A DNA stretch of 32,000 nucleotides, taken from NCBI GenBank assembly GCA_000331975.1, contig CP003263.1, positions 60,001 through 92,000 of the forward strand, read 5' to 3'. Both the position numbers and the translations under genes were made by a program. Positions 5,930 through 17,735 of the stretch are shown here, piece by piece. Numbering within the stretch: the stretch's first letter is position 1; every line of letters starts with the position of its first letter. Below the pieces are notes generated by a model. It saw only the letters and a program-made list of their open reading frames with translations. It was not told where the DNA came from and did not search any database. The DNA is from Candidatus Uzinura diaspidicola str. ASNER. GTDB lineage: Bacteria; Bacteroidota; Bacteroidia; Flavobacteriales; Blattabacteriaceae.

Positions 5930-6175
5930 CTACTTGTTCGATCTTGCGTAAAAAGAAATATCAGCTCTTATTTCACAATACTTATTAACTACTCCATTTC
6001 TACATAAGACACCTGCAAATTCTACTTGTTCAGGATAATTTATAATAGTTTTTGCTCTTTGTGAATAAAAATCTATTATTGTATAGCCATAAAAGTAAAG
6101 ATTTTTATTTATATATTCCTTGGTTAGCCAAATTGCACACTCATAACCTATAGTAATTCTCATATTATTTCTCAT
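5930..6175 (-). CDS. Small ORF (81 aa), possibly a decayed MsrB/SelR-domain (methionine-R-sulfoxide reductase) remnant
   Basis: An 81-aa open frame in a very AT-rich (stop-rich) intergenic gap is unlikely by chance. IGYECAIW...YGYTIIDF resembles GxYxCxxCxxxLFxSxxKFxSGCGWPSF, and VNKYCEIRADISF resembles GLRYCINSAALKF. The N-terminal ~45 aa, the HLGHVF block and most Zn cysteines are missing. Comparison is by eye only. Confidence 0.4.
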   Translation of the reverse strand: MRNNMRITIGYECAIWLTKEYINKNLYFYGYTIIDFYSQRAKTIINYPEQVEFAGVLCRNGVVNKYCEIRADISFYARSNK

Positions 6176-6222: not shown

Positions 6223-7233
6223 ATGAAAACTATAGCTAATTTTTATTTTCTAAATAAAATTCCTATTATCCGTGTTGATTTTAATGTCCCACATAATAAC
6301 CTCTTCAGTAGGTTATATAAAATAATAATTTCTGATAGAGTACAAAAAACTATCCTAATTTCACATTTAGGTCTTTCACATGGAGAAATTTCTAATAAGT
6401 TTTCTCTTATAAATATTATCCCGTATCTGCAGAAAGCATTAAAAATTCAAGTACAGAAGTGTAAAGAAATTATAGGCAATATAATACATAGAATAATATT
6501 AAAGAATATTAGATTTTTTAAAGAAGAAGATGGAAATGAAGTTTTTGCAAAGCAATTATCTCATATTTATGTTAATGATGCTTTTGGTGTTTCTCATCGC
6601 TCTCAAACTCCTATTACAAAAATAACTAAGTTTTTTCCATCTTTAAAATATTTTGTTATATATGGAAAAAAACCTATTACTGCAATAATAGGAGGAGCAA
6701 AGGTCTCATCTAAAATATTTCTTCTCGTAAATATTCTTCCATTAAGAGATCATCTTTTAATAGCGGGTGGAATGGCTTATAATTTTATTAAAATATTAGA
6801 AGGTAGAGTAGGAAACTCTATAATTGACTATTATAAAAATAAATCTCTTAGAAAGAAAAATCATGTAGATTTACCAATCGATGTAATAATATCTGATGCT
6901 ATGAATAAAGATGCAAATATTAAAGAACAATTTGCAAAAAAAATATCTAAAGGATGGATGGGGCTAGATATAGGAAGAAAGTCTATACATGAGTTTACAA
7001 AAGTAATCAATCGTTCTCTTTCAATTTTTTGGAATGGCCCTTTAAGAGTTTTTTACATTACTAATTTTTCAAATGGAACTTCCAAAGGAGCTTTTTCTAT
7101 GGTAGGTGGTGGAGAGTCTATCTTATCAAGAAAAAAATATAAATATAAAATAAGTTATATATCTACTGGAGGTGTTGCAATGTTAGCAATTTTAAAGGGT
7201 AAGAATCTTCCAGGTGTATCTGTTAATAACTAA
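6223..7233 (+). CDS. pgk: Phosphoglycerate kinase, shortened and divergent (possibly non-functional)
   Basis: 336-aa ORF with PGK blocks in order: IIRVDFNVP, SHLG, NIRF, YVNDAFGVSHR, GGAKVSSKI, AGGMAYNF, GLDIG, WNGP, GGGES, YISTGGVAMLAILKGKNLPG. It is about 50 aa shorter than typical PGK (~390 aa), and signature residues are changed (see findings). Confidence 0.8.
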   Translation: MKTIANFYFLNKIPIIRVDFNVPHNNLFSRLYKIIISDRVQKTILISHLGLSHGEISNKFSLINIIPYLQKALKIQVQKCKEIIGNIIHRIILKNIRFFKEEDGNEVFAKQLSHIYVNDAFGVSHRSQTPITKITKFFPSLKYFVIYGKKPITAIIGGAKVSSKIFLLVNILPLRDHLLIAGGMAYNFIKILEGRVGNSIIDYYKNKSLRKKNHVDLPIDVIISDAMNKDANIKEQFAKKISKGWMGLDIGRKSIHEFTKVINRSLSIFWNGPLRVFYITNFSNGTSKGAFSMVGGGESILSRKKYKYKISYISTGGVAMLAILKGKNLPGVSVNN

Positions 7234-8526: not shown

Positions 8527-9576
8527 ATGTTTCAAGAAAGAAAAACTTCTACTCCATTGGAAAAGTTAGGAGAATTTGGTATAATAAAATATCTCACACA
8601 AGATATTAATTATCATCAATTTTCTAGTATTATAGGTATAGGAGATGATGCAGCTGTTTTAGATTTTAAAGAAAATAAAATATTAGTTTCAACAGACTTA
8701 TTAATTGAAGGAATACATTTTAATTTAGCATATACACCATTAAAACATTTAGGATATAAAGCAGTAGTAGTGAATATTAGTGATATCTATGCAATGAATG
8801 CTAAACCTACTCAAATTACTATCTCTATTGCAGTTTCTAATAAGTTTAGTTTAGAGTCTCTTAATGAATTTTATGTAGGTATTAAGATGGCTTGTAAACA
8901 TTACAAAATAGATTTAATAGGAGGAGATACCTCTTCTTCTAATTTTGGAATGATTATATCTATGACTGCTATAGGTAGTGCATATCAAAAAGATATTGTT
9001 TTACGTAAAGGAGCTGCTCCTAATGATCTTTTAGTAGTTTCGGGGGATTTGGGAGCCGCCTATTTAGGATTACAAATCCTTAAACGTGAATATGAAGTAT
9101 TCAAAACTAATCCACATATTCAACCAGAATATGGTGGATATGAATATGTTATACAACGTCAATTAAAACCAGAAGCTCCAAATAAAATACTTTCTATTTT
9201 TAATACTGTTGATGTAAAACCTTCATCTATGATTGATATATCTGATGGGTTAGCCTCTGAAGTTCTTCAGATTTGTGATATGAATAACTTAGGATGTCGT
9301 CTTTTTGAAGGTAAACTACCTATAGATCCTCAAACTCAACTTGCCTGTGAAGATCTTCAATTAAATCCATCAATAGCAGTATTAAGTGGAGGGGAAGATT
9401 ACGAATTACTTTTTTCCATATCACTGAAAGATTATGAAAAAATAAAATATCAAGACTATTTTTCAGTCATTGGCTATATGACTTATCTAGAAGAAGGGGC
9501 AAAAATTATTACAAAAGAAGGTCAATTAGTTTCTATTACAGCCCAAGGTTGGGATGCTTTTCTTAAGCATGCTTAA
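8527..9576 (+). CDS. thiL: Thiamine-monophosphate kinase
   Basis: 349-aa ORF of the AIR-synthase-related family. It contains GIGDDAAVL, DLLIEGIHF, GGDTSSS and SGGEDYELLF. Confidence 0.85.
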   Translation: MFQERKTSTPLEKLGEFGIIKYLTQDINYHQFSSIIGIGDDAAVLDFKENKILVSTDLLIEGIHFNLAYTPLKHLGYKAVVVNISDIYAMNAKPTQITISIAVSNKFSLESLNEFYVGIKMACKHYKIDLIGGDTSSSNFGMIISMTAIGSAYQKDIVLRKGAAPNDLLVVSGDLGAAYLGLQILKREYEVFKTNPHIQPEYGGYEYVIQRQLKPEAPNKILSIFNTVDVKPSSMIDISDGLASEVLQICDMNNLGCRLFEGKLPIDPQTQLACEDLQLNPSIAVLSGGEDYELLFSISLKDYEKIKYQDYFSVIGYMTYLEEGAKIITKEGQLVSITAQGWDAFLKHA

Positions 9577-10291
9577 GATTTATATAATATTCAATTTCTG
9601 AATGAACATATTTGTCTTCTTTGATAATAAGATCAGAGTTATCGATAGCTAATTTTATCAGATTTCTTAAATAAGGTTTTTCAATATGTTTAAGAGATTT
9701 ATTTTTTATTCCATCAAGTTTAATTTTTTTTATTAGATCAATACTAATTTGTTTTTCAAAATTTTCGTTATAGATAGAACTTACAATTTTAGTCTTTTTA
9801 AATAGAGGGTCTCCTTTGTAATAAGTTTTTATATAGAGAGGAATACAAGCTCCTAACCATCCATGAATATGAAGAATATCAGGCGACCAACTTAGTTTTT
9901 TTATTGCGTAAATTACACTTTTGGTAAAAAACAACATTCGTTCATCTTCAAAAGAAGATCCTAAACTATCAGAATAAATACCTTTTCTTTTAAAAAATTC
10001 TTCATTTTCAATAAAATATACTTGTAATCTTATCTCTGGTATAGAAGCGACTTTAATCATCATAGGTTTATCTATATTTTTAATAATTACTTTCATGCCT
10101 GAAAGTCTTATTACTTCATGTAATTGATGTTTTCTTTCATTAATTATGCCATAACGGGGCATAAAAATACGAACATCGTTTCCTTTAAAATGCATTTTTT
10201 TGGCAATAATAGAAGTCTTTAAAGAAATAGAAGATTTAGAAGTATATGGAAATAATTCTGAAGAAATATACAAAATACGTTTTTTTGTCAT
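9563..10291 (-). CDS. Short glycogen/starch-synthase-like protein (GT5 N-terminal domain only)
   Basis: MTKKRILYISSELFPYTSKS...VRIFMPRYG...LHIHGW matches the N-terminal half of GlgA-type GT5 synthases. The short (~250-270 aa) form is the one I recall from Flavobacteriia. Its 3' end overlaps the thiL 3' end by 14 nt. Confidence 0.65.
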   Translation of the reverse strand: MTKKRILYISSELFPYTSKSSISLKTSIIAKKMHFKGNDVRIFMPRYGIINERKHQLHEVIRLSGMKVIIKNIDKPMMIKVASIPEIRLQVYFIENEEFFKRKGIYSDSLGSSFEDERMLFFTKSVIYAIKKLSWSPDILHIHGWLGACIPLYIKTYYKGDPLFKKTKIVSSIYNENFEKQISIDLIKKIKLDGIKNKSLKHIEKPYLRNLIKLAIDNSDLIIKEDKYVHSEIEYYINLKHA

Positions 10292-11283: not shown

Positions 11284-11822
11284 AATCTATCATAATTAAT
11301 GGAAGGAAAAGAGAAAACTTAGGAAAATCATCTACTAGTCGATTACGATATTCTGAAGAAGTACCTTGCGTACTCTATTATAGAAAAGGGGAAAATATTC
11401 ATTTTTCTACATATCTTTCAAGCTTTCGGAAGCTTGTTTATACGCCTAACTCATATACAGTGATTATTGAATGGGAGGAAGGAGAGAAAAGTGAAGCACT
11501 TTTAAAACAAATACAGTTTCATCCAGTATCAAATAAGATTTTGCATGCAGATTTTTGCAAATTAGATATTAATAAAATAATAGTTATGCCGGTCCCAATA
11601 AAAACTATTGGACGTTCGATAGGAGTATCTCAAGGAGGAAATTTACGTTTAATACTTAGAAAACTTCTAGTTAAAGCTTTCCCTAAAAATATTCCTGATT
11701 ATTTTGAAATAGATATTACTTTTTTAGCGATAGGAGATAGAGTATATATCAAAGATATTTTAAATGATAATTATATTTTTATGCATTCTAATGATACTGT
11801 AATCCTTACTATTAAGTCATAG
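11280..11822 (+). CDS. rplY: 50S ribosomal protein L25 / general stress protein Ctc
   Basis: 180-aa ORF. NGRKRENLGKSSTSRLRYSEEVPCVLY and IQFHPVSNKILHADF are typical of L25/Ctc. ATGA start/stop overlap with prs. Confidence 0.85.
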   Translation: MKSIIINGRKRENLGKSSTSRLRYSEEVPCVLYYRKGENIHFSTYLSSFRKLVYTPNSYTVIIEWEEGEKSEALLKQIQFHPVSNKILHADFCKLDINKIIVMPVPIKTIGRSIGVSQGGNLRLILRKLLVKAFPKNIPDYFEIDITFLAIGDRVYIKDILNDNYIFMHSNDTVILTIKS

Positions 11823-11824
11823 TA

Positions 11825-12229
11825 ATGAAATTTTTAGATGAATACTTTATGAGACAAGCTTTAAAAGAGGCTATTTATGCTTTCGAAAAAAACGAAATCC
11901 CTGTAGGAGCAATAATAGGATTTAAGAATAATATTATTGCACAAGCTCATAATCTTACAAAAAAACTAAAAGATGTTTCCGCTCATGCGGAACTCCAAGT
12001 AATTGGAGCAGCAGAATTATATTTAAAAGGGAAATATAAATCTTTAAAAGAATGTAGTCTATATGTTACTTTAGAACCTTGTATTATGTGTTCTGGAGCA
12101 ATTTTATTGGCTAAATTAGGTAGTTTGGTTTTCGGAGCTTCAAATATTTCTTTTAATAAAGTAATTCATAATATAGAATCTAGTCTATTGTTAGAAAGTT
12201 TCTTTAAAAAGAGGAGAAAATATCTATAA
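11825..12229 (+). CDS. tadA: tRNA-specific adenosine deaminase (CMP/dCMP deaminase fold)
   Basis: Zinc-site motifs HAE (SAHAELQVI) and PCxxC (EPCIMCSGAI) at the right spacing. N-terminus is YFMRQALKEAIYAFEKNEIPVGAII. The C-terminus is somewhat short. Confidence 0.85.
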   Translation: MKFLDEYFMRQALKEAIYAFEKNEIPVGAIIGFKNNIIAQAHNLTKKLKDVSAHAELQVIGAAELYLKGKYKSLKECSLYVTLEPCIMCSGAILLAKLGSLVFGASNISFNKVIHNIESSLLLESFFKKRRKYL

Positions 12230-12349
12230 TAGAATTCTTTTTTTTATAGGAGACTTTTTAAAAGTGTAGGAGCTATACCTAATATAATTTTTATTGTAAT
12301 TTCTTTTATTTTTCCTAAAGAAGGACAAGATGATAAAAAAATATAAATA

Positions 12350-13654
12350 ATGCAGCAAGCAATTGTAGCAATAGTAGGGAGACCAAATGTAGGAAAATCA
12401 ACCTTTTTTAATCGTTTAGTTGGTAGAACTGAAGCAATTGTTGATTCAGTAAGTGGTATTACTAGAGATAGGCATTATGGCCTTTCTGAGTGGAATTCCC
12501 ATATATTTACAGTAATCGATACAGGAGGTTATGTAGTAGGTAATGATAGTTTTTTTTATCAAAGTATTCGTAATCAAATAGAATCAGCAATAATTGCTGC
12601 TGATATAATTTTTTTTATGGTAGATGCTTTTATAGGTCCTATAAAAGAAGATTATCAAGTAGGTGAATTTCTACGTAAATTTCAAAAACCAATAATGCTA
12701 ATTACTAATAAAGTAGACAATACTAAAATATTATTAAATAGTGTAGATTTTTATAGATTAGGATTTAATAAATATTATTGTCTTTCTGCTAACAATGGAA
12801 GTGGAAGTGGGGAAATATTAGATGATTTAGTAAAATTATTACCAACAATTTCAAAAAAAGAATACACTAAAAATATTCCTACTATAGCAATAGTAGGAAG
12901 ACCAAATGCAGGAAAATCAACACTTTTAAATACTTTTTTGAGGGAAGAAAGGCATATAGTAACGGATATGCCTTGTACTACAAGAGACGCTCTAAAGGTT
13001 TATTATTCTTTATTTGGTTTAGAATTTATATTAGTGGATACTGCTGGTATTAGAAAAATTTCTAAGATAAATGAAAATATAGAGTATTACTCGGTAATGC
13101 GAACAATTAGTTCGATAAAATATGCTGATGTTTGTTTACTCATAGTAGACGCAGAAATAGGTTGGCAATCTCAAGATATGAACATATATCACTTGATTTA
13201 TAAGAATAGCAAGGGTGTTGTTATTGTTATAAATAAATGGGATAAAATAGAAAAAAATCATAGTTCTCTAAAAGAATATGAGAAAAAAATTCTAGCAAAT
13301 ATTGCATATTTAAATGATGTTCCTATTATTTTTATTTCTGCGCTTATGAAGAAACGTATATTAAAGATATTAGAAATATCTTTAAAGGTTTTTAGAAATC
13401 GTAGAAAAAAAATAAAAACAAGCCATTTAAATAATATAATGTTACCGATTCTTAAGTCTAATCCACCATCAGCAGTAAAAGGCAGATATATTACAATAAA
13501 ATACTGTACTCAGTTACCTTCTTCCACTCCACAATTTGCTTTTTTTTCTAACATGCCTAAATATATAAAGTCTTCTTATAAAAAATATATTGAGAGTCAA
13601 TTGCGTAGAAACTTTGATTTTAAGGGTGTTCCAATAAGGATTTTTTTTAAATAA
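12350..13654 (+). CDS. der: Ribosome-biogenesis GTPase Der (EngA), double GTPase domain
   Basis: Two tandem G domains with P-loops GRPNVGKST and GRPNAGKST, DTGG/DTAG and NKVD/NKWD motifs, and a KH-like C-terminus. Confidence 0.95.
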   Translation: MQQAIVAIVGRPNVGKSTFFNRLVGRTEAIVDSVSGITRDRHYGLSEWNSHIFTVIDTGGYVVGNDSFFYQSIRNQIESAIIAADIIFFMVDAFIGPIKEDYQVGEFLRKFQKPIMLITNKVDNTKILLNSVDFYRLGFNKYYCLSANNGSGSGEILDDLVKLLPTISKKEYTKNIPTIAIVGRPNAGKSTLLNTFLREERHIVTDMPCTTRDALKVYYSLFGLEFILVDTAGIRKISKINENIEYYSVMRTISSIKYADVCLLIVDAEIGWQSQDMNIYHLIYKNSKGVVIVINKWDKIEKNHSSLKEYEKKILANIAYLNDVPIIFISALMKKRILKILEISLKVFRNRRKKIKTSHLNNIMLPILKSNPPSAVKGRYITIKYCTQLPSSTPQFAFFSNMPKYIKSSYKKYIESQLRRNFDFKGVPIRIFFK

Positions 13655-13719
13655 AATACATGTCAATACTACATAAAAAATAATGTTTCTAAATTTTACA
13701 TAAACATAGCTTAGAAAGA

Positions 13720-14915
13720 TATTATGAACTGAAAAAAATATTTACCAGTTTTATAAATAAATGGGCTGATTTTGATAATGAGCCTATTATTTCTGCTGTT
13801 ATTTATTCATCTGTTGATCGAACGTACAAGTGATTTTGCTAGTATTGGGAAAAATTACTAATGATCTGTAGCCTTTTTTTGTTTTTCCTGATTCTTTTAG
13901 AGAACGATGGTTAAAAGAAAATAAATGGGGATATTCGGGAATAGATTTTTTTTCTTCAGTTATTTATAAGAATTATCTACATATGAAGTGTTTCTAGAGA
14001 AACAGGACCAAGGTATTTTGATAGTTTAGCTGTATTGATTTTTTTTATATTACTTGGTCGTTCTTTTTCCTTTTATAGAGATTACAAATATTTTTTACCT
14101 ATCGGTATTACAGTTTAAATGATATGTAAAGGTGATTGTCTTTTGATTTGTAATGAGGAAATTATTACTACAGATTGTGAAGCTTTGATAAGAGATTATG
14201 CTGGAGGACGTCAAAAAGGTGTTATTATTGAAATAGAAGGAATTAAAGAGTAAAAAAGTGTTAATAAATGTAGTTATTATTTCACTATATGTGTCCTTAC
14301 TATTGCTTTCCAAAACTCTATACTATTGGTAGTTTTGCTATTCTTATTGTCGCATGGTTTTGCTTGAGAATGTGAACGTATAAGCAAAAATTGATGTCTT
14401 GGTATTCGATAAAACAGGTACCTTAACTAAAAGCGAAAGTAGCAGAATACATTTTTTAAGGGGAGAAAGATGAAAAACAACCATTTAAATGCACTTAAAG
14501 ATATACAGGATTTAGTTTACAAGCTTTTATAAACGGTTCATTTTATAACCATCTATATAAATTTACCAAACCTTCCTATTTCTAATAGAACACAAATTTC
14601 TAGGTTTTTTTGCATTTAAACATCGTTATCGTCAAGCTTTTTAATAAGGTTACAACAAAAAGGTAAAAAAGTAATGATGTATTATTATTTTCCTATAAAT
14701 TCTATCATGCTTTTTGCTCTATATTGGGAGGAATGCTTAATGGATTCGCTTCGTTGATCTAAAGTTAAAAAAGACCCTATCGTTAGCTACTAAAACTTTA
14801 AATTCTATAGGGCATTTTACAGATTGGATTATGGCATTTGGCTGATTTTCTGGTTCGTTTGGTATTATATTTTACGTAGTTCCGCTTTATTGTAGTGCTG
14901 GTATTCAATAAGAAA
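13720..14915 (+). pseudogene. ccoI: Relic of a heavy-metal P-type ATPase (CcoI/FixI-like), frameshifted and internally deleted; boundaries approximate
   Basis: Fragments found in shifting + frames, in colinear order. YFDSLAVLIFFILLGR at 14014-14061. KGDCLLICNEEIITTDCEALI at 14128 onward (actuator-domain GD...E..P.DG pattern). IDVLVFDKTGTLTK at 14390-14431 (phosphorylation motif DKTGT at 14408-14422). FAFKHRYRQ / LIRLQQKGKKVMM at 14609-14679. ILGGMLNGFASL (decayed GDGxNDxxAL). LSLATKTLNSI at 14777 onward. Stops occur in every frame. About 1.2 kb remains where roughly 2.4 kb is expected. Confidence 0.75.
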
Positions 14916-14949
14916 TGTGGAAAGAATTTTAACAGGATTGGAACCCTAA

Positions 14950-15365
14950 AAAATAAAATATTTATTGATACGGTCACTACTATTATGGAAGGAGGGCTTT
15001 ATTTACTTTTCTTTCTTAGCTATATTCCCCTCCTTTATTACTGTCAAACCATAGTACGTCCTTTAAGATATGAGGTAGTTCGAAGCAGGAGAATTTATAT
15101 ACGATCATCCATTTTTATGGGGATCTAAACGAACAGGGCCAGATTTGGGTAGTGAAGGCGGGAACATCTATATAATCCACGATCACTACTTCATTTTTCT
15201 AATGCCATTAGAATCCTTGCTTCGATAAAGAAGCATCTAAATACAGATACTATTCTATCTAAAATGCGTGCAATGGTAAAATTAGGTCTCCCTTCAAATA
15301 GCTAATGAAAGATATGGAAGAACAGAGAAGAAAGAAATAGGACGCTTTGATTGCTTATTTACAGA
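14950..15365 (+). pseudogene. ccoO: Relic of the cbb3 oxidase CcoO (FixO) moiety of ccoNO; the CcoN moiety is essentially absent
   Basis: [16 protein letters not shown], then after a frameshift [23 protein letters not shown] (15082-15150, the FixO signature). LNTDTILSKMRAMVKLGLP follows, and after another shift DALIAYLQ (15341-15364, the CcoO C-terminal signature). The heme CxxCH that should precede SQMIRP is reduced to YYC-QT. Confidence 0.75.
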
Positions 15366-15466
15366 TTATGATTGATTTCTCTCATATTCCTAATGCAAGT
15401 TTTTTACAATCTAACGATTGATATTATTTTTTTTTAGAATACCGTATTTGAAGACGAAAAAGACTA

Positions 15467-15857
15467 ATGATGAAAACTAGAAGCTCCTTCATATATAACT
15501 ATTTTCTTTATAATAATTGTAATATTTTTACTAAAGAAAATAGAAATCTCCTTATCAAACAAAACCATTCTTTATATCGTTTATATGACATTGTATTATT
15601 AGAGCTTGATAATGACTTACCTTCTTTAGGTTTATTATTATATTCAATCAGGCAACACTTGAGACAGCCCATTTTGATGATAGTTCTTGTAGAAGAAGGT
15701 AAAATTTGAAGAGAGTTGCGCTATTTGTCATGAATCTAATGGAAGAGGTAATATCGGTCCTCATCTAACCGATGAATTTTGGATAAATAAAGAAGAAAAA
15801 AGTTTGTTTAAAAATATTTTTCATGCCGGTAAAGGAGGAATTCCTTACATTATCTAG
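15467..15857 (+). pseudogene. ccoP: Relic of cbb3 oxidase subunit CcoP (FixP), internally deleted and frameshifted
   Basis: The 80-aa ORF 15467-15709 contains YDIVLLELDNDLPSLG (15584 onward), matching the CcoP YDGIxELDNxLPxWW block. After a frame change at the A4T3 run (15701-15707) comes ESCAICHESNGRGNIGPHLTDEFW (15711-15782, a cytochrome c CxxCH domain). It ends at the TAG at 15855-15857. The total is far shorter than an intact CcoP. Confidence 0.7.
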
Positions 15858-15893
15858 GATAATAGAAATCCTATAGACATAGAAAAAAGAAAG

Positions 15894-17135
15894 ATGAAAA
15901 ATAAAATAAATAAAGAAGCTCTTGACTATCATAGTAGATTTCCAGCTGGTAAAATTAAAATTTCTCCTACTAAAAATTATCGTTCTCAAAAAGATCTTTC
16001 TTTAGCATATTCTCCAGGAGTGGCTCTACCTTGTATAGCTATTACTCAATATCCTCAAAAAGCCTATGAATTTACATCTAAAGGCAATTTAGTAGCAATA
16101 GTATCTAATGGGACTGCTGTCCTTGGACTTGGTGATATTGGTGAATTAGCATCTAAGCCAGTAATGGAAGGAAAAGGTCTATTATTTAAAGTATTTGCAG
16201 GAGTAGATGTCTTTGATATTGAACTAGCTGAAAAAGAACCTGAAAATTTTATTCAGGTAATAAAAGCAATTTCTTCTTCTTTTGGTGGAATAAATCTTGA
16301 AGATATTAAAGCACCAGAAGCTTTCGAAATTGAACGACGGCTAAAAAAAGAACTTAATATTCCTGTTATACATGACGATCAACATGGCACTGCCATTATA
16401 TCAGGTGCAGCACTTATTAATTCTTTAGAATTTGTAGGTAAAAAAATTGAAAAAATAAAAGTAGTAGTAAATGGAGCTGGAGCTGCTGCTATTTCTTGTA
16501 CAAGGCTCTATAAGAAACTAGGAGTTAGAGCAGATAATATTTTAATGTTTGATAGAAAAGGTATTATTTATATAGAAAGAAATGATCTTACTAAAGAAAA
16601 AAAGGAATTTGCCGTTAAAACCCATATTAATTTAGAGGAAGCATTAAAAGGAGCCGATGTTTTTATTGGCCTTTCTATTGGAAATATTTTAACTACAGAA
16701 ATGTTATTAACGATGGCTAATAATCCTATTATTTTTTCTTTGGCAAATCCAAATCCAGAAATTAGATATAATCTTGCTATTAAAACTCGCCCAGATGCTA
16801 TCGTTGCTTCTGGCAGAAGTGATTTGCCTAATCAAGTGAATAACGTTTTAGGATTTCCATATCTCTTTAGAGGATCTCTTGATGTGCAATCAATAACTCT
16901 CAATGAAGAGATGAAATTAGCTGCAGTATTTGCTATAGCTAGATTAGCTAAGGAAAAATCTTTTGGAAAAGAATCTATTATTCCTCATCCATTAGATGAA
17001 AATCTAATTACGCGTGTATCATCTGCAGTAGCTAGGGCAGCTATTAAATCAGGTGTAGCTAGAAAAAAAATTACTGATTGGAATGCGTATGAAGAATATC
17101 TTTTTGATAGAAGAGTAATTAAAACCTTATACTAA
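15894..17135 (+). CDS. maeB: NAD(P)-dependent malic enzyme, catalytic portion only (no PTA-like C-terminal domain)
   Basis: 413-aa ORF with [41 protein letters not shown] and VVNGAGAAA. It ends ...[21 protein letters not shown], which aligns by eye with the E. coli MaeB linker just before its PTA-like domain. Confidence 0.9.
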
Positions 17136-17165
17136 AAATAGTAAATTTTGAATTTACTTAACTCA

Positions 17166-17271
17166 TATTTAACTTTCTATTTAACTTTCTATTTAACTTT
17201 CTATTTAACTTTCTATTTAACTTTCTATTTAACTTTCTATTTAACTTTCTATTTAACTTTCTATTTAACTT
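17166..17271. repeat. Perfect tandem repeat: 12-bp unit TATTTAACTTTC, 8 complete copies plus a 10-nt partial copy
   Basis: Counted directly. Copies start at 17166, 17178, 17190, 17202, 17214, 17226, 17238 and 17250, and a partial copy runs 17262-17271. There are no substitutions among the complete copies. A degenerate copy may lie at 17150-17165 (aatttacttaactca). Confidence 0.97.
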
Positions 17272-17272
17272 A

Positions 17273-17700
17273 TACCCCAATCCCTACTATTTTTAATATT
17301 CCGGAAGTGATTGAATTATAATTATATGTAGTTCGTATTGTCTTAAAAAGATATCCGTATAAGCAATAAAAAAATCAATTACATGGAGATAAGAAAAAGC
17401 ATCACGTTTATAGTAGGAATATTTATAAGTATGATACTTTTTCTCCAAGTAACAGACCGTTGAAATCTATAAGAAGGGTATACAGACGGAGTTTTTGGCT
17501 ACTAGGTGGAGAACTGATAATAATAAAGGAAATAATAATGAATAAGTAGGTTTAAGTACTAAAATTATAACATTAGGGTTTTAATGTACTACTTCTATTC
17601 AGAATAGTTCAGGAGGAACTGCTGCTCTTTAATTTGCAACTAATAGAGCTAGAAATAGGTAAAAAAATTTAGTATGCATTTGCAAGAAACAAATCTTTAA
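17273..17700 (+). pseudogene. Possible eroded remnant of the MaeB PTA-like (phosphate acetyltransferase-like) domain
   Basis: No ORF longer than 26 aa. Fragments are GYTDGVFGY (17476-17502; compare E. coli MaeB FGYRDGVHTAG), TLGF (17570-17581), and, after an in-frame TAA stop (17582-17584), CTTSIQNSSGGTAAL (17585-17629; compare FGIEPRVALLSHSNFGSS). They lie in the expected order downstream of maeB. Similarity is weak, judged by eye from a remembered sequence. Confidence 0.35.
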
Positions 17701-17735
17701 TTTAATTAAAAATATAGGGACTTAAAATTTATATT

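Follow-up and report, generated by a model that had tools for sequence, protein, structure and literature searches.

Uzinura diaspidicola is a flavobacterial obligate symbiont of armoured scale insects. In the stretch of the strain ASNER genome analysed here (32,000 nucleotides of contig CP003263.1, positions 60,001 to 92,000; hereafter the window, numbered from its first letter), we examined the interval 13655-15893 between der and maeB, which is very likely a non-functional, neutrally decaying remnant of an ancestral ccoI-ccoS-ccoNO-ccoQ-ccoP-fixH cluster, the genes for a cbb3-type cytochrome oxidase and for its copper delivery and assembly. Both flanking genes are intact and lie on the plus strand: der (engA) occupies 12350-13654 and encodes a product with two MMR_HSR1 domains and a KH_dom-like domain in Pfam that is 100% identical to ASNER Der, and the maeB-like malic enzyme gene occupies 15894-17135 (Pfam malic and Malic_M; AGC66850.1, putative NADP-dependent malic enzyme). 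Genes are densely packed on either side, with prs, rplY, tadA and der upstream and maeB, aroC, miaA and htpG downstream, and the G+C content of the window is 26-35%. Annotated ASNER proteins with exact matches in the window are the malic enzyme, the phosphoglycerate kinase PGK and a glycogen-synthase-related product. The accessions from pgk (AGC66841) through maeB (AGC66850) are consecutive and keep pace with the open reading frames (ORFs), so no annotated protein lies between der and maeB.

Oxidase gene signatures between der and maeB

A previous sequence-only reading of this DNA had proposed, from six peptides read in shifting frames, that the interval holds a cbb3 oxidase locus reduced to frameshifted relics. 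All six peptides are present in the plus frames at the coordinates it had given, and the interval lacks any ORF of more than 80 amino acids, as it had said: each plus frame carries 46-58 stops, and the longest open stretch spans 85 codons. When the six-frame translation of 13600-15950, with stops masked, was scanned against Pfam, the plus frames yielded FixO with an E-value of 3.1e-10 (40.4 bits, for a gathering score of 29.6 bits) and weaker matches to Cytochrome_CBB3 (0.009) and to the HAD/DKTGT start (0.22), while the sole minus-frame match, to DUF496, was sub-threshold (E 0.056). The CcoO relic, once stitched together over four frame changes, retrieved thousands of CcoO proteins at about 1e-16 from a database of 5.8 billion protein sequences, almost all of them proteobacterial stand-alone CcoO. 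Scans of 13655-15893 against Rfam and for tRNA genes (ARAGORN) found nothing. We conclude that the cco signal in the interval is real and far beyond chance.

To place these signatures we used related lineages, taken as contigs with Der homologues at 79-88% identity from public metagenome and read-archive assemblies; a scan of genome contigs added one close relative (L001), its other matches being distant, non-syntenic and unused. In L081, whose der is 85% identical to that of the window, an intact der-ccoI-ccoS-ccoNO-ccoQ-ccoP-fixH-maeB arrangement is present, with 6,713 nt between der and maeB. It comprises ccoI (794 aa; ATPase-cat_bd, E1-E2_ATPase and Hydrolase domains), ccoS (45 aa; FixS), a fused ccoNO (730 aa; COX1 and FixO), a ccoQ-like ORF (56 aa), ccoP (287 aa; FixP_N and two cytochrome c domains) and fixH, a FixH-domain gene. 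CcoN and CcoO are fused in a single reading frame in the intact relatives (726-745 aa). The gene order ccoI-ccoS-ccoNO-ccoQ-ccoP, which the sequence-only reading had given for free-living Flavobacteriia, is exactly the order in L081. Collinear alignment of the interval to the L081 cluster at the same place bore out its identification of a cbb3 relic, the gene order, the strand and the loss of function; L081 proteins and Pfam models between them gave significant cco and P-type ATPase matches, and the comparison of the der-maeB interval across related symbionts revealed intact, syntenic cco clusters.

With L081 as the reference for all tblastn, retention and deletion figures, the homologous remnants lie on the plus strand in the following order. 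The relic of ccoI (fixI), the gene for the copper-transporting P1B-type ATPase of cbb3 assembly, extends over 13678-14680 in about 24 fragments (tblastn with L081 CcoI, E 5e-34). The fused ccoNO relic takes up 14681-15371 as two contiguous parts. Its CcoN part, at 14681-14997, consists of pieces of approximately residues 285-460 only (tblastn, ccoNO residues 337-463, E 1.4e-17), and its CcoO part, at 14998-15371, is the source of the FixO match in Pfam and of a tblastn match to ccoNO residues 579-657 (E 9.5e-21). A relic of the ccoQ-like small subunit follows at 15368-15457; here tblastn similarity is weak (E 0.001), and blastn aligns 15380-15435 with L081 13243-13299 at 88% identity. The ccoP relic, at 15470-15825, combines an N-terminal membrane-anchor piece with one haem c motif (tblastn residues 186-228, E 2.3e-23, 84% identity). 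The remaining 15826-15893 is leftover intergenic DNA and the maeB 5' region, of which the last ~16 nt before the maeB start align to the L081 maeB leader. Significant similarity, limited to 0.001 for ccoQ, is thus combined with conserved position and order.

Composition of the relic

Blastn of the window against L081 gave about 20 collinear matches across the interval at 67-97% identity, and MAFFT E-INS-i alignment resolved about 45 retained blocks at 67-100% identity. Retention differs from gene to gene: 42% of ccoI (999 of 2,385 nt, at 85% identity), 31% of ccoNO, 53% of ccoQ (90 of 171 nt) and 41% of ccoP (354 of 864 nt) remain; nothing is left of ccoS and essentially nothing of fixH, for which 11 nt align. 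Within CcoO, the stretch at 15082-15162 is still 93% identical over 27 aa by tblastn. To describe the interval as a whole locus is to say too much: 31-53% of each of ccoI, ccoNO, ccoQ and ccoP remains, and ccoS, fixH and the first ~285 CcoN codons have left no trace.

Relative to L081, 4,141 nt were deleted in about 60 deletions and 8 nt inserted, a strong deletion bias that has removed 67% of the operon DNA. Most deletions measure 5-150 nt (median ~25-30), the largest being 1,227, 614 and 367 nt, and 57 of the 81 gap runs are not a multiple of three. Microhomology at the deletion junctions was 0.78-0.91 nt, compared with ~0.9 +/- 0.16 for randomly placed deletions, although divergence from the reference may blur the junctions; a role of junction microhomology in the deletion mechanism is not supported.

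Parts essential to the encoded proteins are lost. In CcoI, the DKTGT codons survive at 14408-14422, while TGES, GDGxND (GDGLND) and the three N-terminal CxxC motifs are deleted and CPC is mutated, so that DKTGT is all that is left of the motifs required of a functional P1B-type CcoI/FixI. CcoN has lost its first ~285 codons, and its AHVHVG haem-ligand stretch is gone, the window reading HFTDWIMAFG where L081 has 24 residues. The CxxCH haem motif of CcoO (CNACH codons) is deleted, and in CcoP one CxxCH (CAICH) survives at 15717-15731, with the C-terminal ~60 codons from residue 229 deleted. A functional ccoNOQP operon is accordingly excluded on three counts: the frames are interrupted, the haem-copper core of CcoN is lost and the haem c motifs of CcoO and CcoP are incomplete. 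Neither the oxidase nor its assembly ATPase can be made from the DNA at 13655-15893.

Intact and decayed counterparts in related lineages

The same cluster was followed through 12 lineages, the window included, by the length of the interval from the der stop to the maeB start. Four of them are intact: L088 (6,868 nt), L081 (6,713 nt), L089 (6,665 nt) and L087 (6,445 nt), the last being intact save one ccoI frameshift; L088 and L089 show the arrangement of L081, as does L087 apart from that frameshift. The decayed intervals fall from 4,945 nt in L082, a relic of nearly all genes without the CcoO part, ccoQ and the first two thirds of ccoP, through the 2,239 nt of the window and the shorter relics of L086 (975 nt) and L091 (966 nt), to traces in L001 (484 nt) and L084 (373 nt) and to intervals with nothing recognisable in L092 (187 nt) and L085 (129 nt). 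Lineages are unlike in what they retain: ccoS and fixH persist in L082 but are gone from the window, and CcoO, ccoQ and the front of ccoP persist in the window but are gone from L082. The deletions are therefore lineage-specific.

DNA loss does not track neutral divergence, since the window has lost 67% at ~6.4% substitutions and L082 26% at ~12%. Between the two sister relics (L082 11306-16250 and window 13655-15893) the DNA lost per neutral substitution thus differs about seven-fold, so the tempo of deletion varies strongly between close lineages.

Two details of the intact clusters deserve mention. In L087, ccoI (11331-11396 / 11387-13705) carries its frameshift near codon 20, with residues 1-22 in one frame and 20-794 in another; this marks either the onset of decay or an error in the assembly of that contig. 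In L088, the segment 17435-18111 between fixH and maeB holds a 41-aa ORF with a weak DsbD_2 match and a 73-aa ORF, which suggests that the ancestral cluster once ended with a further ccdA/dsbD-like gene related to cytochrome c maturation.

Neutral evolution of the relic

To ask how the relic has evolved, we took as test columns the alignment positions at which all four intact operons agree. From these the window departs at 56, 59 and 52 of the 589, 623 and 432 sites at codon positions 1, 2 and 3 (9.5, 9.5 and 12.0%), a flat profile (chi-square p 0.36) with the equal rates at the three positions that mark a neutrally evolving pseudogene. Restricting the analysis to ungapped blocks of at least 30, 50 or 75 nt leaves the profile flat, and misalignment of small fragments is therefore not its cause. 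The intact operons, each compared with the columns invariant in the other three, differ by 3.4-5.4, 1.9-2.7 and 7.5-10.1% at positions 1, 2 and 3, and are under purifying selection.

Changes specific to the window were then polarised with the sister relic L082, and eight flanking functional genes were subjected to the same analysis as controls, one of which (prs) entered out of frame and slightly blurs the control. The relic carries 25, 26 and 21 such changes at the three positions (6.4, 6.3 and 7.3%), as against 2.0, 1.7 and 3.1% in the flanking functional genes, a 3.6-fold excess at positions 1 and 2 combined (Fisher p 2e-10). With rates both flat and above those of its neighbours, the relic has therefore evolved free of constraint along virtually the entire branch that leads to ASNER from the split with its nearest sampled relatives.

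Neutral rates reported for insect endosymbionts lie at about 1e-8 to 1e-7 substitutions per site and year, which would put the age of the relic on the order of 0.6-6 million years. The locus had been described as recently inactivated, and this is correct in a relative sense only, in that the operon was still selected on the stem of its clade (see below) but has been neutral along practically all of the terminal branch. The operon was lost after Uzinura lineages had diversified, and a third of its DNA can still be recognised after ~6% neutral substitutions and ~60 deletions.

Probable number and timing of losses

To order the losses, we built a neighbour-joining (NJ) tree from the proteins of 16 genes on query-anchored alignments; it is unrooted, outgroups being available for der only. 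It resolves three groups. Clade A comprises the window, L001, L082 and L085, all decayed, with 100% bootstrap; clade C comprises L084, L086 and L091, likewise all decayed, with 90%; and a third group unites the four intact lineages with L092, which joins L088 and L089 at 80%. In the der-only tree with outgroups, L092 Der groups with that of L088 (88%), and the root falls next to L081 (94%). The rooted der-only tree and the unrooted concatenated trees disagree as to whether clade C is nearer to clade A or to the intact group.

The interval of L092 (7232-7418) is 187 bp long, has a G+C content of 16.6% and contains no recognisable relic, and it belongs to a lineage that stands among intact ones. 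Its position is the strongest single indication of independent loss: with L092 purged yet placed among intact lineages, a single loss does not explain the distribution on these trees.

Shared substitutions speak to the timing within clade A. At codon positions 1 and 2, the window and L082 share 12 substitutions over 805 sites in the operon, compared with 55 over 3522 in the functional genes (Fisher p 1.0), while a neutral clade A stem would predict ~30-50 shared substitutions (Poisson p 6e-11 for an expectation of 51). As shared substitutions are at the baseline of functional genes, the operon was still selected on the stem of clade A. From this pattern, it would have become neutral about when clade A diversified, or separately in its members, and the loss in clade C would then be independent. 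No deletion inside the genes has identical boundaries in the window and L082, and a few boundaries coincide.

We consider at least two independent losses likely and three or more plausible; the operon lost in ASNER would have been lost independently in at least one other lineage, probably two. As a broader reading, we hold on balance that aerobic respiration did not disappear a single time, when the armoured-scale symbiont arose, but keeps being given up by separate Uzinura lineages, each on its own, on two occasions at the least and probably on three or more, and that sister lineages retain an intact cbb3 operon under selection.

Several points limit these readings. The timing comes from NJ on query-anchored alignments with long branches (L086 and L092) and from outgroup rooting by a single gene. 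Moreover, 10-12 nt of one ~20-nt variable stretch of ccoI, after AAACATCGTTATCGTC, are missing from the window and L082 of clade A and from L086 and L091 of clade C alike, at about 14615-14630 in the window, 12960 in L082, 11945 in L086 and 4115 in L091. This shared gap could be an older shared lesion than the substitutions suggest; it may represent an ancestral in-frame indel blurred by 1-2-nt changes, a shared frameshift or a deletion hot spot.

An alternative is that the operon was inactivated once, in the common ancestor of all decayed lineages, which would then differ only in their later deletions. Such a history agrees with the ccoI gap common to the two clades, with two further deletion boundaries that coincide between the window and L082, and with the first concatenated tree, in which clades A and C form one group once it is rooted at L081 as the der-only tree (94%) indicates. 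The branch that sets off the four intact lineages had 93% bootstrap in that tree and fell to 62% after L091 and L092 were added. A single inactivation conflicts, however, with the grouping of the relic-free L092 with the intact L088 and L089 in the concatenated tree and with L088 in the der tree, with substitutions shared by the window and L082 at the functional baseline and not above it, and with the lack of any internal deletion of identical boundaries in these two relics. We therefore regard one ancient inactivation as unlikely and favour repeated loss.

Possible residual function or sequencing error

The remnant might retain some function, as the source of a small membrane peptide from the 80-aa ORF at 15467-15709, as a regulatory or promoter region for maeB, or through programmed frameshifting. 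A relic of 2.2 kb is unusually large for a genome of 263 kb that is reported to be 89% coding (PMC3971599), one 80-aa ORF with an ATG start, corresponding to the CcoP N terminus, is left, and the CxxCH and DKTGT codons survive. Against this, that ORF, like the other ORFs of the interval, has no Pfam match and is absent from the protein collection, and substitutions are flat over the codon positions. Sister lineages have shrunk the same interval to 129-484 bp, so that at most the final few tens of nt ahead of maeB are needed; the interval shows no enrichment of promoter-like sites (19 versus 14.1 +/- 3.4), and no terminators were found in it. Finally, 46-58 stops per frame together with ~60 deletions, with most gap runs out of frame, exceed what any recoding mechanism could bridge. 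Retained function is thus highly improbable.

That the operon is intact in the organism and its frameshifts are sequencing or assembly errors can be dismissed, for nothing specific speaks in its favour beyond the error-prone nature of AT-rich homopolymers (the L087 ccoI frameshift could be such an error in a separate assembly), indel errors cannot account for a shortfall of 4.1 kb, or two thirds of the operon, compared with four intact orthologues, and decay of this kind is also seen in seven other lineages that were assembled independently.

Probable loss of respiration in Uzinura, compared with related symbionts

According to the published gene inventory (Rosas-Pérez et al., 2014; PMC3971599, Table 3), U. 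diaspidicola lacks the cbb3-type oxidase, cytochrome c, NADH dehydrogenase, ATP synthase and menaquinone synthesis, and the oxidase is present in Walczuchella, Sulcia and Blattabacterium. Our results agree with the ASNER inventory in that no cbb3-type oxidase can be encoded at this locus, and the 2.2-kb relic adds detail and not a new biological fact; with the absence already published, it matters little for this genome. For the absence of a second oxidase and the loss of other respiratory genes in ASNER we rely on this literature, our own scan having covered the 32-kb window. The accessible literature mentioning Uzinura, which does not include the original genome paper (Sabree et al., 2013), contains no account of the relic, of intact operons in relatives or of a decay series.

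Set beside a Bacteroidota-type cbb3 cluster, the remnant has the same genes, order, strand and der-maeB position as L081, L087, L088 and L089, and differs in that every gene in the window is broken, ccoS and fixH are absent and an oxidase cannot be encoded. A parallel for the process is found in the energy genes of Walczuchella, in which relaxed selection on energy-conserving complexes in a tiny genome has likewise left recognisable pseudogenes: atpABG are pseudogenes in Walczuchella monophlebidarum (PMC3971599), and pseudogenisation is ongoing in Walczuchella (PMC12188211). The two symbionts differ in what is decaying, since Walczuchella keeps its cbb3 oxidase and NADH dehydrogenase while its ATP synthase decays, whereas in ASNER it is the oxidase that survives as a relic, the remaining respiratory complexes being reported as absent.

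We propose that the lineage stopped respiring, which would have relaxed selection on the oxidase; ATP would then have come from substrate-level phosphorylation by the remaining glycolytic genes, from the host, or from both, and deletion-biased mutation would now be erasing the DNA of the dead operon. The trigger need not have been a lesion in a cco gene: with the loss of another link of the respiratory chain, all cco genes would become neutral simultaneously, and this would account for why no first lesion is clearly shared.

In itself this is ordinary symbiont gene decay, and what may be new is the comparative picture of intact operons, graded erasure and probable parallel loss. The relic marks the former site of the operon and places its loss after the divergence of Uzinura lineages. 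At least 12 related lineages are represented in public assemblies, four with intact operons under purifying selection and eight at graded stages of erasure, apparently through independent losses. If loss was indeed repeated, the der-maeB interval would form a natural time series from 6.9 kb to 0.13 kb across 12 lineages, and this series would give the tempo and the lineage-specific rate of deletion as well as the order in which energy metabolism was given up. It is suited to asking how fast dead genes disappear from tiny genomes, whether respiration, ATP synthase and NADH dehydrogenase are lost together or in sequence, and what the host supplies to symbionts that no longer respire.

Other genes of the window

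The superoxide dismutase gene, noted earlier as intact, is so. The same reading had counted pgk among degrading genes. This gene (6223-7233, plus strand; AGC66841.1) is shortened and divergent but still a single ORF, annotated as PGK: it encodes 336 aa, compared with 392-393 aa in L081, L088 and L089, and is 63% identical to L081 PGK versus ~85% for neighbouring genes. Among the other relatives, L082 has a pgk cut down to 280 aa and L087 one cut down to 53 aa, and L001, L084 and L086 have none. From these lengths and identities, selection on pgk looks relaxed.

An MsrB-like ORF, which had also been reported as degrading, did not turn up among the ORFs scanned. The one meant may be the 81-aa ORF at 5930-6175 on the minus strand, between ileS and pgk, which has no Pfam match and matches 69 of 112 residues of L081 rpiB (relic 5993-6163, 54% identity, E 2.7e-17); by this similarity it is identified as a truncated relic of ribose-5-phosphate isomerase B. 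A further ORF at 9563-10291 (minus strand), of 242 aa and annotated as glycogen synthase-related, contains the N-terminal Glyco_transf_5 domain only, and it overlaps thiL at the 3' end of that gene. L082 and L087 share this ORF with the window, and none is called in L081, L084, L086, L088 and L089; it is possibly another gene on its way out.

Directly downstream of maeB lies the next gene-free gap, 600 nt at 17136-17735. It contains the relic of a MatE efflux transporter at 17347-17445 on the plus strand (tblastn with L081 MatE residues 293-332, 65% identity, E 5.8e-5) and a blastn trace of a DEAD-box helicase at 17544-17604. L081 carries intact copies of both genes at this position, as do L087 and L088 of MatE. 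The MatE relic reflects the same process of decay as the cco interval.

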